DNA of 56,579 nucleotides from Mediterraneibacter gnavus (GTDB lineage Bacteria > Pseudomonadota > Alphaproteobacteria > RF32 > CAG-239): positions 1 to 56,579 of the forward strand of contig CAVEOB010000004.1 of assembly GCA_963617265.1 (NCBI GenBank). Direction: 5' to 3'. Shown in pieces: positions 2,279 to 53,536 of this stretch. A model generated the notes under the pieces. It was not told the DNA's origin. It ran no database searches and worked only from the letters and a program-made list of their open reading frames with translations. Position numbers and translations under genes: made by a program. Each line of letters begins with the position of its first letter. The first letter of the stretch is position 1.

Positions 2279-4501
2279 TTAGGCGGCGTTTTCCACCGGA
2301 CAAAGCTCTGCCAAAACTTCTTTTTTCAGCGTTACATTATCCGCCTTGCCGGTAGCAAATACCGGTAATTTTTCGTGATACAAAATCACACGCGGCAAAT
2401 AAAGCTCTGACATACCGTTGTTTTTTACATATTCATGCAGCATTGCCGAGGTAACTTTTTCATTATTGGTTACCAAAACAATCTGCTCGCCTTTACTTTC
2501 ATGCGGAATCGAAACCACGCCATAGCTGTATTCCGGTCCCATATCCTTAGTGGCGTCCATAACCATATCCTGCACGGCGTTCAGCGATACCATTTCGCCG
2601 CCGATTTTAGCAAAACGCTTGATACGGTCTTTAATGGTAAAGAAGCCGATTTCGTCCATTTCCACCACATCGCCGGTGTGATACCAGCCGTCTTCAGGCG
2701 GAACCAAGACACCAGGGTTGGACGGCATATAGTAACCCTGCATAACATTTGGACCTTTCACGCACAGCTCGCCGCCGTTGGCAATACCGTCAACTGGCAG
2801 AATCTTAAACTGCATGCCCGGCATAATTTTACCGATAGAGCCGAATTTATTGAAAATTCCATTGTTGGCGGTCATAACCGGAGAACATTCGGTTGCGCCG
2901 TAAGCTTCCATCATACGCACGCCGGAATGTTCCATCCACATACTGCGGGTGTCAGACTTGGCAGCCTCGCCGCCGGAATACATCAAGCGGATATTGTGGA
3001 AATCGTACGGGTGGGCAATTTTTGCATAACCACGCAAGAAAGTATCGGTACCAAGCATCAAAGTTGCGCCAAGCTCATAAACCAGCTCGGCAACCACACG
3101 ATAGTGCAGCGGAGACGGATACAAGAACAGCTTAGAACCTTCAAACAACGGGAACAGAGTGCCCACAGTCAAGCCAAAGCTATGGAACATCGGCAAGGCA
3201 TTAAACAGCAAATCCTTAAAGTTAATGGTTTGAATCGCCGTCATTTGCTTGATATTGGCAATGATGTTAGCATGGCTCAAAACCACGCCTTTCGGAGCGC
3301 CCTCTGAACCGGAAGTAAACAGAATAACCGCCTTTTTGTCGCCGCCTGTTTTGTGCGGAACATGCTTAATTTTATAGCTGATATAGGCACCGATTTTAGT
3401 CCACAGCGACATTTTTTTAGCAATATCTTCCAAATAAACAATATTGCAGCCGGCGTTTTTCATATCTTCTACCACGTTTTCCATTTTGGCTTTAATAATA
3501 AAAGTACGGGAAGTCAAAACGGTTTTAACCAGCGCAGTTTTGCACATGGAAATCATATTTTTAGAGCCGACAGAAAAGTTAATCATCACCGGAGTGCGGT
3601 TATAAGCCGAAAGTCCGAAAAATGTGCAAACTGTGGCAATAGCGTTCGGCAGCAAAATACCGACATTTTCATCAACCTTAGTAAACTTTTTAAAGCTGCG
3701 ACCCAAAGCAAAAGAAGCAACAATAATGTCTTTATAAGATTTTTGCTTGCGGTTGATATCTTCTATTATGCGCGGGCGTTTAGAAAAGAAACCAGTGCGG
3801 GAATATACCTTAGCGGTTTTCATCAGCTGGGCAAACAATGAAATATTTTTGTCATAGTTAATATCAAAGCACATCTCGCGCAAAATCATATATACTTCAT
3901 TGCTGATGTGGTCGCGTTGGCGGCGCAGTTCGTCTTTCAGCTTAAAGCTGCGCGGCTTGCCAACATAGATACGCATTTTCGGCAGCGGACGGTGCGGCAA
4001 TTTGCCTTTAGTCTTAGAAAAATAGCCGTATTGCGGACCGTCGATCCAAACCGGAATAATCGGAGATTTAGATTTATCGGCAACCAGCCCCGGAGCTTCA
4101 TAAATTTTCATTAAACCGCCGTTTTCAGTAATGCGTCCTTCGGCGAAAATCACCACCAAACGCCCCTCGTCCACTTTGGCAATCAGCTTTTTAATGTCTG
4201 AAGGCTCAATCGGATTAAACTTTATTACATCGGCACGCCCCATCAAAAAACTAATCCAATGACGGCGGTACAAATGACCGTTTAGGGCAAAAACCGGATT
4301 ACCAGGGAGAAATGCAAACAGCAAAATAGGGTCTAAATAAGAAACGTGGTTAACCACATAAACGCCTTTTTTAGGCAAGTTGTTCACATCAAATTCAAAA
4401 ATACATTTTGCTTTCATCAAACGCAAAACCGTTCGCAGGCAAAATCTGACAAACTCTTTCACAAGTCCAACCTTTCTGTTGTTAAATATTATCCTATCCA
4501 T
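2279..4501 (-). CDS. aas: Bifunctional acyltransferase / acyl-ACP (acyl-CoA) synthetase, Aas-like
   Basis: 740-aa fusion. N-terminal PlsC-type acyltransferase HxxxxD box (NHVSYLDP) plus a C-terminal AMP-binding domain (TSGSEGAPKGVVLSH, GWYHTGD). Confidence 0.75.
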   Translation of the reverse strand: MDRIIFNNRKVGLVKEFVRFCLRTVLRLMKAKCIFEFDVNNLPKKGVYVVNHVSYLDPILLFAFLPGNPVFALNGHLYRRHWISFLMGRADVIKFNPIEPSDIKKLIAKVDEGRLVVIFAEGRITENGGLMKIYEAPGLVADKSKSPIIPVWIDGPQYGYFSKTKGKLPHRPLPKMRIYVGKPRSFKLKDELRRQRDHISNEVYMILREMCFDINYDKNISLFAQLMKTAKVYSRTGFFSKRPRIIEDINRKQKSYKDIIVASFALGRSFKKFTKVDENVGILLPNAIATVCTFFGLSAYNRTPVMINFSVGSKNMISMCKTALVKTVLTSRTFIIKAKMENVVEDMKNAGCNIVYLEDIAKKMSLWTKIGAYISYKIKHVPHKTGGDKKAVILFTSGSEGAPKGVVLSHANIIANIKQMTAIQTINFKDLLFNALPMFHSFGLTVGTLFPLFEGSKLFLYPSPLHYRVVAELVYELGATLMLGTDTFLRGYAKIAHPYDFHNIRLMYSGGEAAKSDTRSMWMEHSGVRMMEAYGATECSPVMTANNGIFNKFGSIGKIMPGMQFKILPVDGIANGGELCVKGPNVMQGYYMPSNPGVLVPPEDGWYHTGDVVEMDEIGFFTIKDRIKRFAKIGGEMVSLNAVQDMVMDATKDMGPEYSYGVVSIPHESKGEQIVLVTNNEKVTSAMLHEYVKNNGMSELYLPRVILYHEKLPVFATGKADNVTLKKEVLAELCPVENAA

Positions 4502-17364: not shown

Positions 17365-18402
17365 TTAACGTCCATTGGCCAACACCAGGATTAAATCGCA
17401 TCTTTGCTTGGAGCATACTCCGCATCTGGCAGCAATAACAGACAAATCAAACGGTTCACAGTGCATATCTTTGGCATAGTTGTCAGGAGCAGACTTTCCG
17501 CAAACAGTCAAAATACCGCCGCTTCGGCCGGTTATGCCCTCATTTAGCACAACAGCCCACGAATCGTCATATTCTGATTGTAAATAAAACATTTCTTTGC
17601 AAGTTTCTACCGCATTTGTATCCGGCAACGTCCAAAATCGTAAAAATAATCGTGACCCAATATTGCTGTTTGGTGGAGTAAAAGAATATATCTGCCAAGA
17701 ATTTCCAAACATATCTTTATTTTGCTCATCTAGCATATTTTGCGGAATAATTCCAATATCTTTATAAACATTCATCATCATTTGGTTATCGGTATTTGTA
17801 TAACTTTTTTCATTCATATACATAATCTTCAGATTTGATGTAAGAGTTACAATGTTTTCTTTCCAGCGATTTAATTTAAACTTCTGCATGGCTTTGGAGT
17901 AACCGGCAAGGCCACCGACACTCAGCACTGCGATTATTGCCAGCACGCCCAGCATTTCTATCATTGAACGGCCGTACTGCACTTGACTGTCAACATCATA
18001 CTTATCGCCACACTCCGCTGGCTGTGGCAGACGAGTATCCATGACTTTGTTGCTATAAGCAACGCTACTTTCTTCTCTCGCCACCAGAGAGAACATGCGT
18101 CCCCTGCACCAGTCATTCTCGGATTTATTCCGAGAATCTTCTCTCAACCAGTACTTATGCAACAATAAAGCTAATTTATTGACTAGGTTAGAGACTTGTT
18201 GCCAGAAGATTCTAGGCACGGGGCCTAGAATGACTGGTGCCAGAGGCGCGGGTTTTGTGCTTGTTGTAATGTTTTTGATACCCCTCACCCGACACTTTGT
18301 GTCGACCTCTCCCGCAAGGGGCGAGGTTACAGGATTACATCGCTTCGCTCGCACTAACGAGGGCGAGGTTTTAAATTTATCTGACTTTGAATTATTTTTC
18401 AT
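17365..18402 (-). CDS. Type IV pilin/pseudopilin-like protein with a 143-codon open 5' extension
   Basis: G-RSMIEMLGVLAIIAVLSVGG, with the Gly codon at 17973..17971, Glu at +5 and a hydrophobic helix, is a prepilin cleavage/methylation-type motif. C-terminal Cys pairs are present. The ATG at 18402 has AGGAAG 5 nt upstream. The mature part (17365..17970) is confident; translation of the extension is not. Confidence 0.6.
   Translation of the reverse strand: MKNNSKSDKFKTSPSLVRAKRCNPVTSPLAGEVDTKCRVRGIKNITTSTKPAPLAPVILGPVPRIFWQQVSNLVNKLALLLHKYWLREDSRNKSENDWCRGRMFSLVAREESSVAYSNKVMDTRLPQPAECGDKYDVDSQVQYGRSMIEMLGVLAIIAVLSVGGLAGYSKAMQKFKLNRWKENIVTLTSNLKIMYMNEKSYTNTDNQMMMNVYKDIGIIPQNMLDEQNKDMFGNSWQIYSFTPPNSNIGSRLFLRFWTLPDTNAVETCKEMFYLQSEYDDSWAVVLNEGITGRSGGILTVCGKSAPDNYAKDMHCEPFDLSVIAARCGVCSKQRCDLILVLANGR
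18107..18239. repeat. Inverted pair of REP-like hairpin modules inside the pilin-like 5' extension
   Basis: caccagtcattct-[cggatttattccg]-agaatcttc (18107-18141) and its inverse gaagattct-[aggcacggggcct]-agaatgactggtg (18205-18239). The arms are identical; the hairpin tops differ but both stay self-complementary. Confidence 0.8.
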
Positions 18403-18592
18403 TTCAACTTCCTTTCGTTTAGAATTACAACAAAAAAGCCGCTTGATGAGAGCGACCGGAAGTTGAGAACTATTGCTTATAAGTATAGTGTAGCATATTA
18501 GCGTATAGCCTATTTTGCTACCTTCCGATCAATAGACCAGAAGGTATTTAACGTCAAATGTTTGACGTATAAGCAAGAGGTTCTCACACCCC
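18403..18592 (-). promoter_or_regulatory. Structured 5' leader, copy A (paralogue of 50224-50440), with terminator
   Basis: Block-wise similarity to copy B, covarying helices, identical CUC/UA internal loop, identical CUCAUCA terminator loop and complementarity to the downstream SD. See findings. Confidence 0.6.
18432..18457 (-). terminator. Intrinsic terminator inside leader A
   Basis: Minus strand: GUCGCU-CUCAUCA-AGCGGC followed by U6, about 30 nt upstream of the ATG at 18402. Confidence 0.7.
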
Positions 18593-18649
18593 AGACAGAC
18601 TATCATCTATCCGTAGTAAGGTTACTAAAATATTCTGCAAAAGTAAAGT

Positions 18650-48820: not shown

Positions 48821-48909
48821 GGAGCGTTGGCAGAGTGGTAATGCAGCGGATTGCTAATCCGTCATCCCCTTAAAAGGATGCACAGGTTCGAGTCCTGTAC
48901 GCTCCGCCA
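48821..48909 (+). tRNA. tRNA-Ser (anticodon GCU), CCA encoded
   Basis: Hand-folded cloverleaf: acceptor GGAGCGU/ACGCUCC, 3-bp D stem, anticodon arm GCGGA-UUGCUAA-UCCGU, long variable arm CAUCC...GGAUG, T arm ACAGG-UUCGAGU-CCUGU, discriminator G and CCA. Confidence 0.93.
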
Positions 48910-49203: not shown

Positions 49204-50223
49204 CTAAATTTTACCATATATTTTGCGGTATATTTTCAGCCAAAATGCTAAACGGGAAAAATCACCGCTCAAAAACATTTTACATAAGAATCGGTTAAAC
49301 AAGCTTAGTTCTGTCGGGAAAAACACCTTTTGCGCCGCTAAATCCAAGCAGATTTGCCGATATTTATGCCAATAGCTTTGATAATCAGCGTTTTTGAAAT
49401 ACGGATACGAACAGCATTGCCTAAAAATTATTCTCGAAAAATTTTTCTTCATCAGTTCATAACTTTTTATGTCTTCCATTGCCGCAAAATGCGTCATTAT
49501 TTTTTGAGCCAGCAAAATATGGTCGTTAATTTCTCGCTCCGAAAACTTTTGATGTGTCAAACTGCTTTCTGTCTGCCGGTAGAACATAAGCTTTTCTTTT
49601 ACGCATACTGATTTTTTTACTCGTTCAAACACTAAAAATGAGTAATAATAATCTTCAGCCATTTGTTTAAAATCCGCCGAAAAGTACAAGTCTTTTAAAA
49701 TTTCCCGCTTATACAATTTTCCCCAAACTGCTATTTGCAGCTTGGGCTTTTGTTTTTTAATATAGTGTAAAAATAAATTACTGCCGTCCTGCAGCGAACA
49801 GCTATTGCTTTTTATTATCAGGTTTTTACGCTTTTTCTCTTTTAAGCACCAAGCCATATCGCTATTTGTTTTTTCCAGCGCAGTTGTCATATATTCCATA
49901 AACTGGCAATGCAGCATATCGTCCGCATCTAAAAAAGCGATATAATCACCTTGGGCTTTTTGCAAAGCCGCGTTACGCACTGCCGAAACACCGGAATTTT
50001 TTTGATTTATAAGCACAAAACGACTGTCTTTTGCCGCATACTCCTGCAAAATTTGCCAAGAACTGTCTGCCGAGCCATCATTGACGCAGATAGCTTCCCA
50101 ATAAGGATATGTCTGCGCCTGCAAGCTGTCTAAACACAAGGCTAAATATTTTTCTGCATTATAAACGGGAACAATCACCGAAACCAGTTTGCCGGAGCTG
50201 TTTTCTTTGGATTTTATTTTCAT
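49204..50223 (-). CDS. Family 2 glycosyltransferase
   Basis: VSVIVPVYNAEKYLALCLDSLQAQTY and a DADD motif (DxD). The ATG at 50223 (MKIKSK) is preceded by GGAG, and the ATG at 50235 lies inside that SD. Confidence 0.85.
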   Translation of the reverse strand: MKIKSKENSSGKLVSVIVPVYNAEKYLALCLDSLQAQTYPYWEAICVNDGSADSSWQILQEYAAKDSRFVLINQKNSGVSAVRNAALQKAQGDYIAFLDADDMLHCQFMEYMTTALEKTNSDMAWCLKEKKRKNLIIKSNSCSLQDGSNLFLHYIKKQKPKLQIAVWGKLYKREILKDLYFSADFKQMAEDYYYSFLVFERVKKSVCVKEKLMFYRQTESSLTHQKFSEREINDHILLAQKIMTHFAAMEDIKSYELMKKNFSRIIFRQCCSYPYFKNADYQSYWHKYRQICLDLAAQKVFFPTELSLFNRFLCKMFLSGDFSRLAFWLKIYRKIYGKI

Positions 50224-50230
50224 CACTTTC

Positions 50231-50255
50231 TCCATTAGAGGGTTCTAAACCCCAC
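50231..50255. repeat. 25-bp direct repeat, RBS-proximal copy
   Basis: tccattagagggttctaaaccccac; 24/25 identical to 50411-50435. Overlaps the SD (GGAG) of the glycosyltransferase gene. Confidence 0.9.
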
Positions 50256-50283
50256 AAAAAAAGCCGCCTTGATGAGAGGCAGC
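50256..50283 (-). terminator. Intrinsic terminator inside leader B
   Basis: Minus strand: GCUGCCU-CUCAUCA-AGGCGGC followed by U7, about 30 nt upstream of the glycosyltransferase start. Confidence 0.7.
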
Positions 50284-50410
50284 AGGAAGTTAGAACCTAT
50301 AATGGAAATAGTGTAGTGTATTTGGCGTAAGAGCAAGCTCCTACGCCTTATTAACCACCTTCCTGCTCTGACGCAACAAGGTAGTTTTTCTCATCTGGAA
50401 AAACCAGCTA

Positions 50411-50435
50411 TCCATTAGAGGGTTCTAAACCTCAC
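50411..50435. repeat. 25-bp direct repeat, leader-5' copy
   Basis: tccattagagggttctaaacctcac. Forms the 5' strand of the outer helix of leader B. Confidence 0.9.
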
Positions 50436-50460
50436 ACCGGTAATCAGCCGATGCAATTTA

Positions 50461-50489
50461 AAGCTAGAAAATTTACTAAATAAAGTCAA
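50461..50489 (-). promoter_or_regulatory. Possible promoter of leader B
   Basis: Minus strand: TTGACT, 17-nt spacer, TAGCTT, about 15 nt upstream of the conserved GGUGUGAG block. Confidence 0.4.
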
Positions 50490-50548: not shown

Positions 50549-51157
50549 CTAGCCGATAATCAATTCCATTTCGGTTTCGGAAGAGGTTAATTTCAAAGAA
50601 ACGTCCGCGCCTAATAGATTTTGCAAATAATAGAGCTGCGCATACTGCGAAGCGTTTTCATCAACCTTTTGACCGGCTAAAATCTTTTGGTATGCCGCAA
50701 TTTTTGAGGCTGAAAGCTTAAAGTCCGAAACCGCTTTGACAATCATATTGTCCGTACTGACGCTGATGGAAATTTCTCCGCCTTTAATATAAAGTTCGGC
50801 GGCAATCATCACACATACGCACACAATTTTAGAAAGCTCCTGTGAAACACGGTGCAATTTTAAGGTTATCGGGTTACCGCGGCTGCATACAGTTGCTAAA
50901 TAATCAGTACATAAACGCTCTAAGTCCGCAGGCTGCAGTTTTTGCGAATCCACACCAAACGCAACTCTGAAAAATTTTTGGCGGGCAATCAAAGTGTTTG
51001 AGCCGGTAGTCAGAATTTTTTTTGTACTGTCGTCCAACATTCCGTTGTCATCTTCTATCAATTCCAAGGCACTGGAAATTGCCCCGATATTGCCGATTAA
51101 ATCGTGGCTGATACGCGTGCAAATAAGTTCGGACAATTCCGTTTTGCTCAATTCCAT
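50549..51157 (-). CDS. chpT: ChpT-like histidine phosphotransferase
   Basis: 202 aa. LICTRISHDLIGNIGAISSALELIED matches the DHp-like His box of alphaproteobacterial ChpT, followed by a degenerate CA-like domain. Confidence 0.7.
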   Translation of the reverse strand: MELSKTELSELICTRISHDLIGNIGAISSALELIEDDNGMLDDSTKKILTTGSNTLIARQKFFRVAFGVDSQKLQPADLERLCTDYLATVCSRGNPITLKLHRVSQELSKIVCVCVMIAAELYIKGGEISISVSTDNMIVKAVSDFKLSASKIAAYQKILAGQKVDENASQYAQLYYLQNLLGADVSLKLTSSETEMELIIG

Positions 51158-52066: not shown

Positions 52067-52189
52067 CGGATATTACATTATTTGCAGTTTAACGCAGTTG
52101 TTTTTAAAAAAGGTTTAAAATGTAAATGTTTTATTGTTTACAAGCGGCAAATAAAAAGATACGTTAGCAAAAAAAACAAGGAGAAGAAA

Positions 52190-53536
52190 ATGGAACCTGT
52201 TGTGCAAATTATCGGCGCCGGACTTGCCGGCTGCGAAGCGGCTTGGCAGCTTATCAAACGCAGAGTTAAAGTGCGTATTTTTGAAATGAAACCGCAAAAA
52301 TTTTCACCGGCTCATAAAAATGCGGATTGGGCGGAGCTGGTTTGTTCTAACTCTTTGCGCTCTGACGACGCTGAACACAACGCTGTGGGGCTTATGCATG
52401 AGGAAATGCGCCGTTTCGGCTCGCTGATTATGGAAGCTGCCGACAAAACTCAAGTTCCTGCTGGCGGTGCGTTAGCGGTTGACCGCGGCGGATTTGCCAA
52501 ATTTATAACTGAAAAAATAAAATCTTCGCCATTGGTAGAAGTCATAAATCAGGAAGTTACCGAATTTCCAACAGCCAACGCGCCGTTAACCATTATTGCC
52601 AGCGGTCCGCTGACCAGCACCGCTTTTATCGAAGCCATAAAAAATAAAGTCGACCAAAAATCACTCTCTTTTTATGACGCCATAGCTCCGGTGGTTTATA
52701 AAGAATCCATAGACTTTTCCAAAGCCTGGTATCAGTCCCGCTATGACAAAGGCGATAAATACGACTACATCAACTGCCCGATGAACAAAGAAGAATATTA
52801 CCGCTTTGTCGACGAATTGCTGAAAGCAGAAAAAATGCCGTTTCATGATTTTGAAGAACCGCATTATTTTGACGGCTGTCTGCCGATTGAAGTTATGGCG
52901 GAACGCGGCGTCGACACGCTTTTATTCGGTCCGCTGAAGCCAGTAGGCTTAACGAATCCGCATTCCAGCGAAAAACCGTATGCCGTGGTGCAGCTGCGGC
53001 AAGACAATAAAGAAGATACGCTGCGCAACATTGTCGGCTTTCAAACCAAAATGAAATACGGCGAGCAAACTAGAATTTTCAAGATGATTCCGGGGCTCGA
53101 AAATGCTGAATTTGCCCGACTTGGCGGAATCCACCGCAACACTTTTATTCAAAGTCCGCTGTTGCTTGATGAATTTTTGCGCCTGAAAGCGCAGCCTAAT
53201 GTGATGTTTGCCGGTCAAATCAGCGGCTGCGAAGGCTATGTGGAAAGCGCCGATACCGGTATGCTTGCCGGATATTTTGCCGCTTGCCTGATTAAAGGAA
53301 AAACACCTATTCTGCCGCCGCGCACTACAGCCAGCGGCGCTATGCTGGGTCACCTTGCAGATGCCACAGCCGACTATCAGCCGATGAATATAAATTTCGG
53401 CATATTCCCGACTATTCAAGGAGAAATCACCTCTAACGGCAAATTCCGCAAAATAAAAGGAGCAGACCGCAAAGAAGCCTATTGCAAACGCGCGCTGACC
53501 GATTTTGCCCAATGGATTGAACAAACTAATGCTTAA
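52190..53536 (+). CDS. trmFO: Methylenetetrahydrofolate-tRNA-(uracil-5-)-methyltransferase TrmFO
   Basis: MEPVVQIIGAGLAGCEAAWQL and full-length TrmFO (Gid) similarity. The ATG at 52190 is preceded by AAGGAGAAG. Confidence 0.93.
   Translation: MEPVVQIIGAGLAGCEAAWQLIKRRVKVRIFEMKPQKFSPAHKNADWAELVCSNSLRSDDAEHNAVGLMHEEMRRFGSLIMEAADKTQVPAGGALAVDRGGFAKFITEKIKSSPLVEVINQEVTEFPTANAPLTIIASGPLTSTAFIEAIKNKVDQKSLSFYDAIAPVVYKESIDFSKAWYQSRYDKGDKYDYINCPMNKEEYYRFVDELLKAEKMPFHDFEEPHYFDGCLPIEVMAERGVDTLLFGPLKPVGLTNPHSSEKPYAVVQLRQDNKEDTLRNIVGFQTKMKYGEQTRIFKMIPGLENAEFARLGGIHRNTFIQSPLLLDEFLRLKAQPNVMFAGQISGCEGYVESADTGMLAGYFAACLIKGKTPILPPRTTASGAMLGHLADATADYQPMNINFGIFPTIQGEITSNGKFRKIKGADRKEAYCKRALTDFAQWIEQTNA

Follow-up and report, generated by a model that had tools for sequence, protein, structure and literature searches.

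The DNA analyzed in this work, referred to as the window, is a 56.6-kb stretch that carries on its minus strand a GT2 glycosyltransferase gene, a structured leader that precedes it (leader B), and the two copies of a direct repeat, one in the 5' part of the leader and the other over the ribosome binding site (RBS) of the gene. The glycosyltransferase gene (49204-50223, minus strand; Pfam Glycos_transf_2, 1.5e-34) encodes a protein of 339 aa, counted from the ATG at 50223-50221, which is the true start codon. An in-frame ATG located at 50235 was also considered and rejected as the start, because the orthologous proteins have 340-342 aa and because the upstream ATG does not keep the reading frame in one orthologous locus (L009). 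A tRNA gene of 86 nt (48821-48906, plus strand; 61.7 bits with the Rfam tRNA model) lies between the glycosyltransferase gene region and the next minus-strand genes. Judging from its translation, the reading frame at 50549-51157 (minus strand) resembles a histidine phosphotransferase of the ChpT type, and a Pfam scan of this frame matched no family; by the same reading, the frame at 52082-53536 (plus strand) would resemble TrmFO. Taken together with the related loci, these two neighbors would agree with a gut or rumen alphaproteobacterium as the source.

A promoter-like site precedes leader B, with a −35 element TTGACT (50489-50484), a spacer of 17 nt and a −10 element TAGCTT (50466-50461); the whole site, read from the sequence, spans 50461-50489 on the minus strand. 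The initial annotation had proposed this site as a possible promoter of the leader. A generic promoter scan of the window did not flag it, because its −10 element matches only three of six positions; the proposal is supported by in-register conservation, given that the pattern TTGAC[AT]-N16-18-TAnnnT is present in 64 of the 89 type-I members of the leader family described below, and in 60 of them the distance from the end of the −10 element to the GAGG box is exactly 27 nt.

Downstream of the promoter, leader B begins with the 5' hairpin P0, continues with a four-way junction, whose closing helix P1 has two parts and encloses the hairpins P2, P3 and P4, and ends with a terminator; all the positions that follow are on the minus strand. 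P0 (50435-50453) has the arms CAUCGG and CCGGUG and the loop CUGAUUA, in which UGAU is invariant in the family; its four counted pairs all show compensatory changes, and 98% of the cells are paired. The two parts of P1, P1a and P1b, are separated by an internal loop, CCUC/AUAG, that is conserved. P2 (50395-50407; CUGG UUUUU CCAG) was recognized in the predicted folds, and the family members also have a hairpin here, in a region that aligns poorly. P3 (50355-50384) is formed by strand b (50384-50373) and strand b' (50366-50355), with 98% of the cells paired and three covarying pairs. The antiterminator 5' strand, AGCAGGAAG (50367-50359), is paired in 100% of the cases over 9 bp with strand c, CUUCCUGCU (50281-50289), the antiterminator 3' strand, which overlaps the 5' arm of the terminator; four pairs of this b':c helix covary. 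P4 (50324-50347) shows compensatory changes in nine of ten pairs, and is followed by the conserved junction strand J4/1, AAAUACACUACACUAUU (50307-50323), whose 3' end is CACUAU (50313-50308); the block CUACACUAU within J4/1 was part of our search pattern, and its conservation is not independent. Next comes the 3' strand of P1, named a' (50290-50306; UCCAUUA-UA-GGUUCUAA), and the leader ends with an intrinsic terminator (50256-50283) that includes a hairpin (50283-50263; GCUGCC-UCUCAUCAA-GGCGGC) and a run of seven U (50262-50256), with four of six stem pairs covarying in the family. It was also observed that in all type-I leaders the loop of P0 (UGAUUA or UGAUGA) is complementary to the loop of the terminator (UCAUCAA or UAAUCA), which in the window corresponds to 50447-50441 and 50277-50269. 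The terminator loop UAAUCA occurs only with P0 loops of the UGAUU type, and P0 loops with UGAUGA occur only with UCAUCA; this pattern is suggestive of a kissing contact that the two nearly invariant loops may establish.

A repeat search of the window revealed a direct repeat of 26 nt (50411-50436 and 50231-50256) with 25 of 26 identical positions (96%) and the copies separated by 180 nt; this is essentially the same repeat that had been noticed previously as 25 bp with 24 identities. The 21-mer GGTTTAGAACCCTCTAATGGA occurs exactly twice in the 56.6 kb, and none of 100 shuffles gave any match. The first copy, strand a (50436-50411; UGUGAGG-UUUAGAAC-CCUC-UAAUGGA), includes after UGUGAGG the 5' strand of P1a (UUAGAAC, 50428-50422), the CCUC box (50421-50418) and the 5' strand of P1b (UAAUGGA, 50417-50411). 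The second copy, a2, with the sequence UGUGGGGUUUAGAACCCUCUAAUGGA (50256-50231; UGUGGGG-UUUAGAAC-CCUC-UAAUGGA), runs into GGAG-AAAGUG-AUG; it overlaps the SD sequence GGAG (50233-50230) and ends 7 nt upstream of the ATG at 50223, and the pairing with a' continues to 50224. The sole mismatch between both copies is at 50253 (GUGAGG in a, GUGGGG in a2), a position at which GUGAGG is common to the two copies of the close relatives; with the G at 50253, the 5' extension of a2 could form four additional pairs with strand c (GGGG:UUCC).

In order to place leader B in a broader context, orthologous glycosyltransferase loci were collected through protein homologues of the window GT2, and DNA patterns were used to search for related leaders. 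The first pattern was built from the blocks common to leader B and to a second leader of the window (copy A), and consequently CUACACUAU, AACUUCC and CUCAUCAA are invariant by construction; in the second pattern, which was used with metagenomes, GGAAGGU is likewise invariant by construction. The first pattern yielded 57 loci in species-representative genomes, almost all of them from uncultured gut or rumen Alphaproteobacteria and in some cases several per genome, and the second yielded at least 120 metagenome stretches. After the removal of duplicates, and of three chance matches that were discarded, approximately 150 distinct leaders were obtained from MAGs of gut and rumen Alphaproteobacteria. 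The genes located downstream encode pilin-like proteins in 68 cases, and GT2 glycosyltransferases and beta-barrel OMPs in 19 cases each; the other products belong to several families of lipoproteins or are GT1, GT8 and DUF805 proteins. Where the glycosyltransferases share only 82-86% identity, the leader of the respective genomes is 97% identical. When the window was compared at the gathering threshold with the 4227 models of Rfam 15, only a tRNA matched. For the 800-nt leader region, searched with E <= 10, only chance matches of 15-19 bits were obtained, against gathering scores of 41-90, and for six loci with other family members the best match had 29 bits against a gathering score of 53. 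Literature searches for the family, directed at riboswitches in RF32 and at riboswitch candidates of pilin and glycosyltransferase genes in Alphaproteobacteria, gave nothing relevant. The leader family has apparently not been described before.

An nhmmer profile built from 149 leaders detected in the window only copies A and B and a fragment that corresponds to a2, which the profile recognizes as a piece of the 5' part of the leader. Copy A (18403-18618, minus strand; E-value 8e-37) is located upstream of a pilin-like ORF and is 74% identical to leader B, in agreement with the initial annotation, which had given both copies the same architecture. It belongs to type II, a group that precedes pilin-like genes (many of the leaders L072-L187, and copy A) and is characterized by the 5' hairpin GGAUAGGCGAUAGUCUGUCUGGGG and a variable terminator loop; a TTGAC-N17-TAnnnT promoter in the type-I register was found in none of the 46 type-II leaders examined. 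In the pilin-like gene behind copy A (17365-18402, minus strand), 143 residues of the ORF precede the prepilin motif GRSMIEML, and in 55 of 66 relatives this motif is at residues 6-12. The additional 400 nt, approximately, of this gene (especially 17975-18375) give the impression that palindromic elements were inserted in frame, because they contain an inverted repeat of 61 nt (18092-18152 and 18194-18254); similar pilin extensions are present in L101 and a few other loci. More distant leaders were found upstream of glycosyltransferase orthologues that are 43-47% identical (L007, at 2785-3005 of its locus, L008, L010 and L011). These show the same architecture (fold z = −6.8), with a two-part P1 that has an AACC-CU/UA-GGUU internal loop, three hairpins, an antiterminator and a terminator, and they carry no copy of the P1 strand over the RBS. 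They were not detected by the nhmmer profile of 149 leaders, and their putative kinship to the family is one of architecture alone.

The alignment of the family shows compensatory changes in four of seven pairs of P1a, with 99% of the cells paired; in a set of 88 sequences, P1a is paired in 95-100%. P1b is hypervariable, with 77 variants of the 3' strand, yet in 143 of 146 leaders this strand is complementary to the segment located immediately after CCUC; GAGG and CCUC are 100% pairable at the 5' copy. The covariation in P0, P1a, P3, P4, the terminator and b':c is higher than in every one of 500 shuffles and in all the slid controls. As read from these alignments, covariation supports the four-way junction, the terminator and the antiterminator. 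These elements suggest how the leaders could operate: the terminator would compete with the antiterminator formed by b' and c, and P3 would sequester b', allowing the terminator to form.

A second level of control may reside at the RBS. In 59 of 124 distinct combinations of leader and RBS the SD region is GGAAGUU, which is exactly complementary to AACUUCC of strand c and resembles GGAAGG of b'; in most members, c would pair with this SD, which mimics b'. Copy A follows this rule, given that its SD sequence, GGAAGUUG, pairs with c (CAACUUCC) and not with a'. When the duplexes between the RBS and a' were calculated, not one of the 76 leaders whose SD is of the GGAAG type had a strong duplex (−12 kcal/mol or lower), and 15 of the 48 leaders with another SD had one; matched combinations of a' and RBS were more stable than mismatched ones (z < −2) in 15 leaders and less stable (z > 2) in 2. 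Given that P1b has 77 sequence variants and is complementary in 143 of 146 leaders, the match of an RBS to the P1b of its own leader is specific. Masking of the RBS, as modeled from these pairings, is a family trait with two mutually exclusive solutions, c or a', and among those of the a' type leader B is the most extreme; in leader B and its orthologues, a' would take over from c the masking of the RBS.

The core of a', UCCAUUAUAGGUUCUAA (50306-50290), is complementary to the repeat, and towards a2 the complementarity extends over 50313-50290 against 50250-50224, that is 18-20 bp that reach up to the base before the start codon. The idea that one complementary 3' strand is able to pair with either copy of the repeat is thus borne out, by complementarity and by the predicted folds (leader B, z = −6.0). 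For an RNA that includes only the leader, the predicted minimum free energy (MFE) structure, of −75.6 kcal/mol, has P1 (a:a') around the three hairpins followed by the terminator. For the full-length RNA, past the start codon, the predicted MFE structure is that with a':a2 (−90.6 kcal/mol), compared with −84.4 kcal/mol when P1 was enforced and −77.3 kcal/mol when the antiterminator was enforced. In this predicted ensemble a':a2 has a base-pair probability of 0.95 and P1 one of 0.001, and the probability that the SD is unpaired is near 0. The terminator hairpin lies inside the a':a2 helix, which also takes in CACUAU of the junction strand. Among the leaders that have a2, the predicted energy difference between a':a2 and P1 goes from −6.2 kcal/mol in the window to +2.6 kcal/mol, and in leaders without a2 it goes from +4.6 to +8.1 kcal/mol. 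The two states are predicted to be near-isoenergetic in the orthologues, and the thermodynamic argument is tempered, because equilibrium ensembles are not uniformly in favor of a':a2: those predicted for L006, L070, L050 and L009 favor P1, and a':a2 is hardly populated.

The explanation that we favor, and that we consider rather probable, is that leader B is a family member in which a2, copied over the SD and the start region, competes with a for a'; that a and a2 compete follows from the placement of a copy of the P1 5' strand over this region. If a:a' is formed, the junction would be folded and the RBS at most weakly paired. If a':a2 is formed instead, a helix of around 20 bp would surround the terminator hairpin and the SD would be buried up to the base before the AUG. 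We infer that an effector, either a small ligand or a protein bound to the conserved junction, would set the balance between both states, and that in this way translation, besides being subject to attenuation upstream, would depend on how the leader is folded. The proposal of the initial annotation that the repeat copy is a built-in competitor that couples the leader fold to the occlusion of the RBS, on top of the terminator, is supported by the computed folds and duplexes. Concerning its logic, a':a2 would be a translational lock on the transcripts that go past the terminator, with the same role as c:SD, and it would be released when P1 is stabilized. Such a lock on read-through seems the most likely logic, and our confidence in it is low. 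Several observations count against the favored explanation: its logic conflicts with that of the attenuator, because one state, the folded junction, would combine a formed terminator (off) with an accessible RBS (on); P1 predominates in the ensembles of orthologues mentioned above; and a2 has decayed or been partly lost in some leaders, as described next.

The conservation of a2 was followed in the orthologues of the glycosyltransferase gene. In response to the question of whether orthologous leaders keep a repeat over the RBS, it was observed that a2 persists in orthologues down to 59% protein identity, and that the conserved parts are those that form the helix. Given that MAFFT placed the gap in P1b inconsistently, a':a2 was assessed by duplex calculations instead of pair counting. 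Strands a and a' are identical in the window, L001, L002, L006, L070/L048, L056 and L050/L185; in this set the 5' extension of a2 varies (GUGAGG, GUGGGG, GGCUU), as does the part opposite the internal loop (CCUC, GGC, CCUUA), and the P1b half, UAAUGGAG, is constant throughout. In L050 and L185, a2 lacks the P1a half. In L009, the orthologue with 59% identity, the three strands have changed in a coordinated way (a, UUUAUGGAUA; a', UAUCCAUAAA; a2, CUUAUGGAGA, with AUGC as the loop part). The same layout is present before an unrelated lipoprotein gene (L021), where UUUAGAAC-UAAU-UUAUGGAG lies over the RBS and matches a'. L012 carries the gene orthologous to that of L021, and there the changes in a and a' are not matched by a2, which leaves a duplex of only −7.5; this comparison suggests that the a2 copy can decay.

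These data bear on the main rival for a function of the repeat, namely that a2 is neutral and has no regulatory role, having been left behind when the 5' end of the leader was partially duplicated in tandem or when a tandem leader collapsed. As the origin of a2 such an event is possible: in the close relatives L001-L003 the repeat is perfect (26/26), including UGUGAG, which does not pair with a', and the identity thus reaches 5-6 nt beyond the a'-pairing part, as a recent duplication would leave. The decay of a2 in L012, its partial loss in L050 and L185, and the fact that P1 is predicted to win in several orthologues also agree with a relic. A sequence free of function, in contrast, would not readily account for the persistence of a2 at 59% protein identity, nor for the conservation of its helix-forming halves while the loop and the 5' extension diverge and the CCUC loop is invariant in a; the coordinated change in L009, the confinement of strong RBS:a' pairing to leaders without c:SD pairing, and the recurrence of the layout in L021 point in the same direction. 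We consider it rather unlikely that a2 is nothing else than a relic.

A different possibility is that a2 constitutes a second site for a trans-acting factor that recognizes the GAGG-UUUAGAAC-CCUC hairpin and represses translation directly, which would be in line with the full pairability of GAGG:CCUC at the 5' copy and with the G(A/G)GG...CCUC kept in a2 of the window, L001 and L002. However, GAGG, CCUC or both are lost from a2 in L006, L070, L048, L009, L021 and L050, where the a'-pairing segments stay. Most orthologues thus lack these boxes in a2, and for this reason we consider a second hairpin for protein binding very unlikely. The CCUC box is nearly invariant in a yet free to vary in a2, which indicates that a2 is constrained as a pairing partner and not as a copy of the aptamer.

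The history of the locus can be approached from L004 (2864-3001) and L005, whose glycosyltransferase orthologue (62% identity) is in another gene neighborhood and has no leader. L004 keeps a very similar promoter (TTGACTTTATCGGATAAAATCTCTAACTTT) without the leader or any copy of the repeat, and for this reason it seems that the leader is gained or lost as a unit between the promoter and the RBS. The existence of this leaderless orthologue, the direct repeats that flank a discrete segment, and the presence of the promoter-leader module in front of many unrelated genes are the features that would be expected if the two 26-nt copies were target-site duplications around a mobile insertion of a 154-nt inner leader. 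Nevertheless, strand a is an integral, covarying helix strand in all of the approximately 150 leaders and a2 is present in only a few, the leaderless site of L004 has no copy of the repeat, no terminal inverted repeats are present, and the members are not identical copies of recent origin but have diverged through compensatory changes, as the identity between A and B illustrates. The presence of a in every member and the empty site of L004 rule out the target-site duplication, to which we assign hardly any probability.

If the pairing of a2 with a' is accepted, the sense of the regulation can also be read in the opposite direction. In this variant, which is not a competitor of the pairing itself, the P1 stabilized by the effector would free the RBS (on) and the leader without ligand would hide it in a':a2 (off), as in the add adenine riboswitch, and the glycosyltransferase gene would respond opposite to the pilin and OMP genes. 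The partner strand of the RBS in leader B lies inside P1, so that P1 and a':a2 are strictly exclusive, and CACUAU, from the conserved strand of the junction, is drawn into the a':a2 helix; in the c-type leaders, the RBS is predicted to be closed while P1, the junction and the terminator are folded. Against this inverted response, a folded junction also favors the strong terminator with its seven U, and transcription would be off under the same condition; furthermore, the mutual exclusivity of the c-type and a'-type solutions suggests equivalent rather than opposite roles. We regard the inverted response as possible and doubtful.

Returning to the competition between a and a2, and as far as it can be judged from sequence, the repeat is a lineage-specific variant of the expression platform of a new and widespread leader family. 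If the pairing works as proposed, it would be a clear natural case of an expression platform made by copying a strand of the aptamer onto the RBS, with the copy maintained in the orthologues only where it base-pairs with a'. The family is large, strongly covarying and absent from Rfam, and precedes surface genes of gut Alphaproteobacteria without cultured representatives. It is tempting to speculate, with considerable reserve, that the promoter-leader module represents a new class of riboswitch or an effector-responsive attenuator that places much of the cell-surface repertoire of an uncultured gut and rumen lineage of this group under one signal, including pilin-like proteins, beta-barrel OMPs, lipoproteins and glycosyltransferases (GT1, GT2 and GT8); individual genes would rewire the output through the strand that masks the RBS, and leader B, with its P1 5' strand duplicated over the SD, would invert or gate the translational response of the glycosyltransferase gene with respect to the other genes of the regulon. 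The effector would then reveal the signal to which these symbionts respond in remodeling their surface, and the two interchangeable solutions for masking the RBS on one scaffold offer a ready comparative system for the evolution of expression platforms.

Compared with known systems, the family has general features of riboswitches and attenuators. A covarying, aptamer-like fold is present in around 150 copies in the 5' leaders of functionally related genes, mutually exclusive structures are available for termination (the terminator versus b':c) and for access to the RBS (RBS:c or RBS:a'), and a GC-rich hairpin followed by a U-run is located between the promoter and the start codon. Known classes did not fit: no match to the purine riboswitch model RF00167 was obtained and the leader has a four-way junction, not the three-way junction with a P2-P3 loop-loop interaction and a purine-binding core that an add-type member would require, so that the likeness to add-type riboswitches is one of predicted working and not of membership; no Rfam T-box match was found in the window, the 800-nt region or the six family loci; and no dual hexaloop hairpins, as in ANTAR-type leaders, are present in the predicted folds of leader B. 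The family is accordingly described as a candidate orphan riboswitch or attenuator, and its set of cell-surface genes points to no metabolite.

Leaders common to sets of cell-surface genes, such as glycosyltransferases and pili, are also found in the RfaH/ops (JUMPstart) system, whose leaders front LPS, capsule and pilus operons. The ops element of RfaH is GGCGGTAG, which the invariant GGAAGGUAG of the P3 3' strand (50366-50358, minus strand, family-wide) loosely resembles. The leader family differs in that it has no proper match to ops and is a structured RNA with terminator/antiterminator covariation. A tblastn search with NusG, RfaH, CsrA and Hfq of E. coli against the window and the collected loci detected only housekeeping NusG and one Hfq, and no NusG paralogue; the likeness to RfaH/ops is a lead only.

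The resemblance to attenuators of the terminator/antiterminator/anti-antiterminator type lies in the strands b, b' and c/T, which covary in three ways, and in the GC-rich hairpin with its U-run. Unlike in the classical attenuators, an element that would mask the RBS is also present downstream of the terminator, which suggests that control is dual; the strength of the terminator varies widely in the family, and many U-runs are interrupted. The thiM TPP riboswitch of E. coli has an expression platform of the anti-SD/anti-anti-SD type, and the rest of the family has the same layout, in which c (AACUUCC) is the anti-SD and b' (GGAAGG) the competing look-alike of the SD. In leader B, the role of anti-SD has moved from c to a', and the look-alike of the SD is the 5' strand of P1.

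The 3' strand of the closing helix is also the switching sequence in translational riboswitches such as the add adenine riboswitch of Vibrio vulnificus, in which the 3' strand of P1 pairs either with the 5' strand of P1 or with the SD/start region, and the two states are close in energy, so that the ligand shifts the balance by stabilizing P1 (PMC3851719). Since the same strand of P1 pairs with either partner, the 5' strand of P1 and the RBS region resemble each other. Leader B differs from add in its unrelated fold, a four-way junction of approximately 165 nt with an additional 5' hairpin and no match in Rfam; in its competitor, which is a literal duplicate of 26 nt that would give a helix of about 20 bp; and in that the alternative helix encloses an intrinsic terminator.
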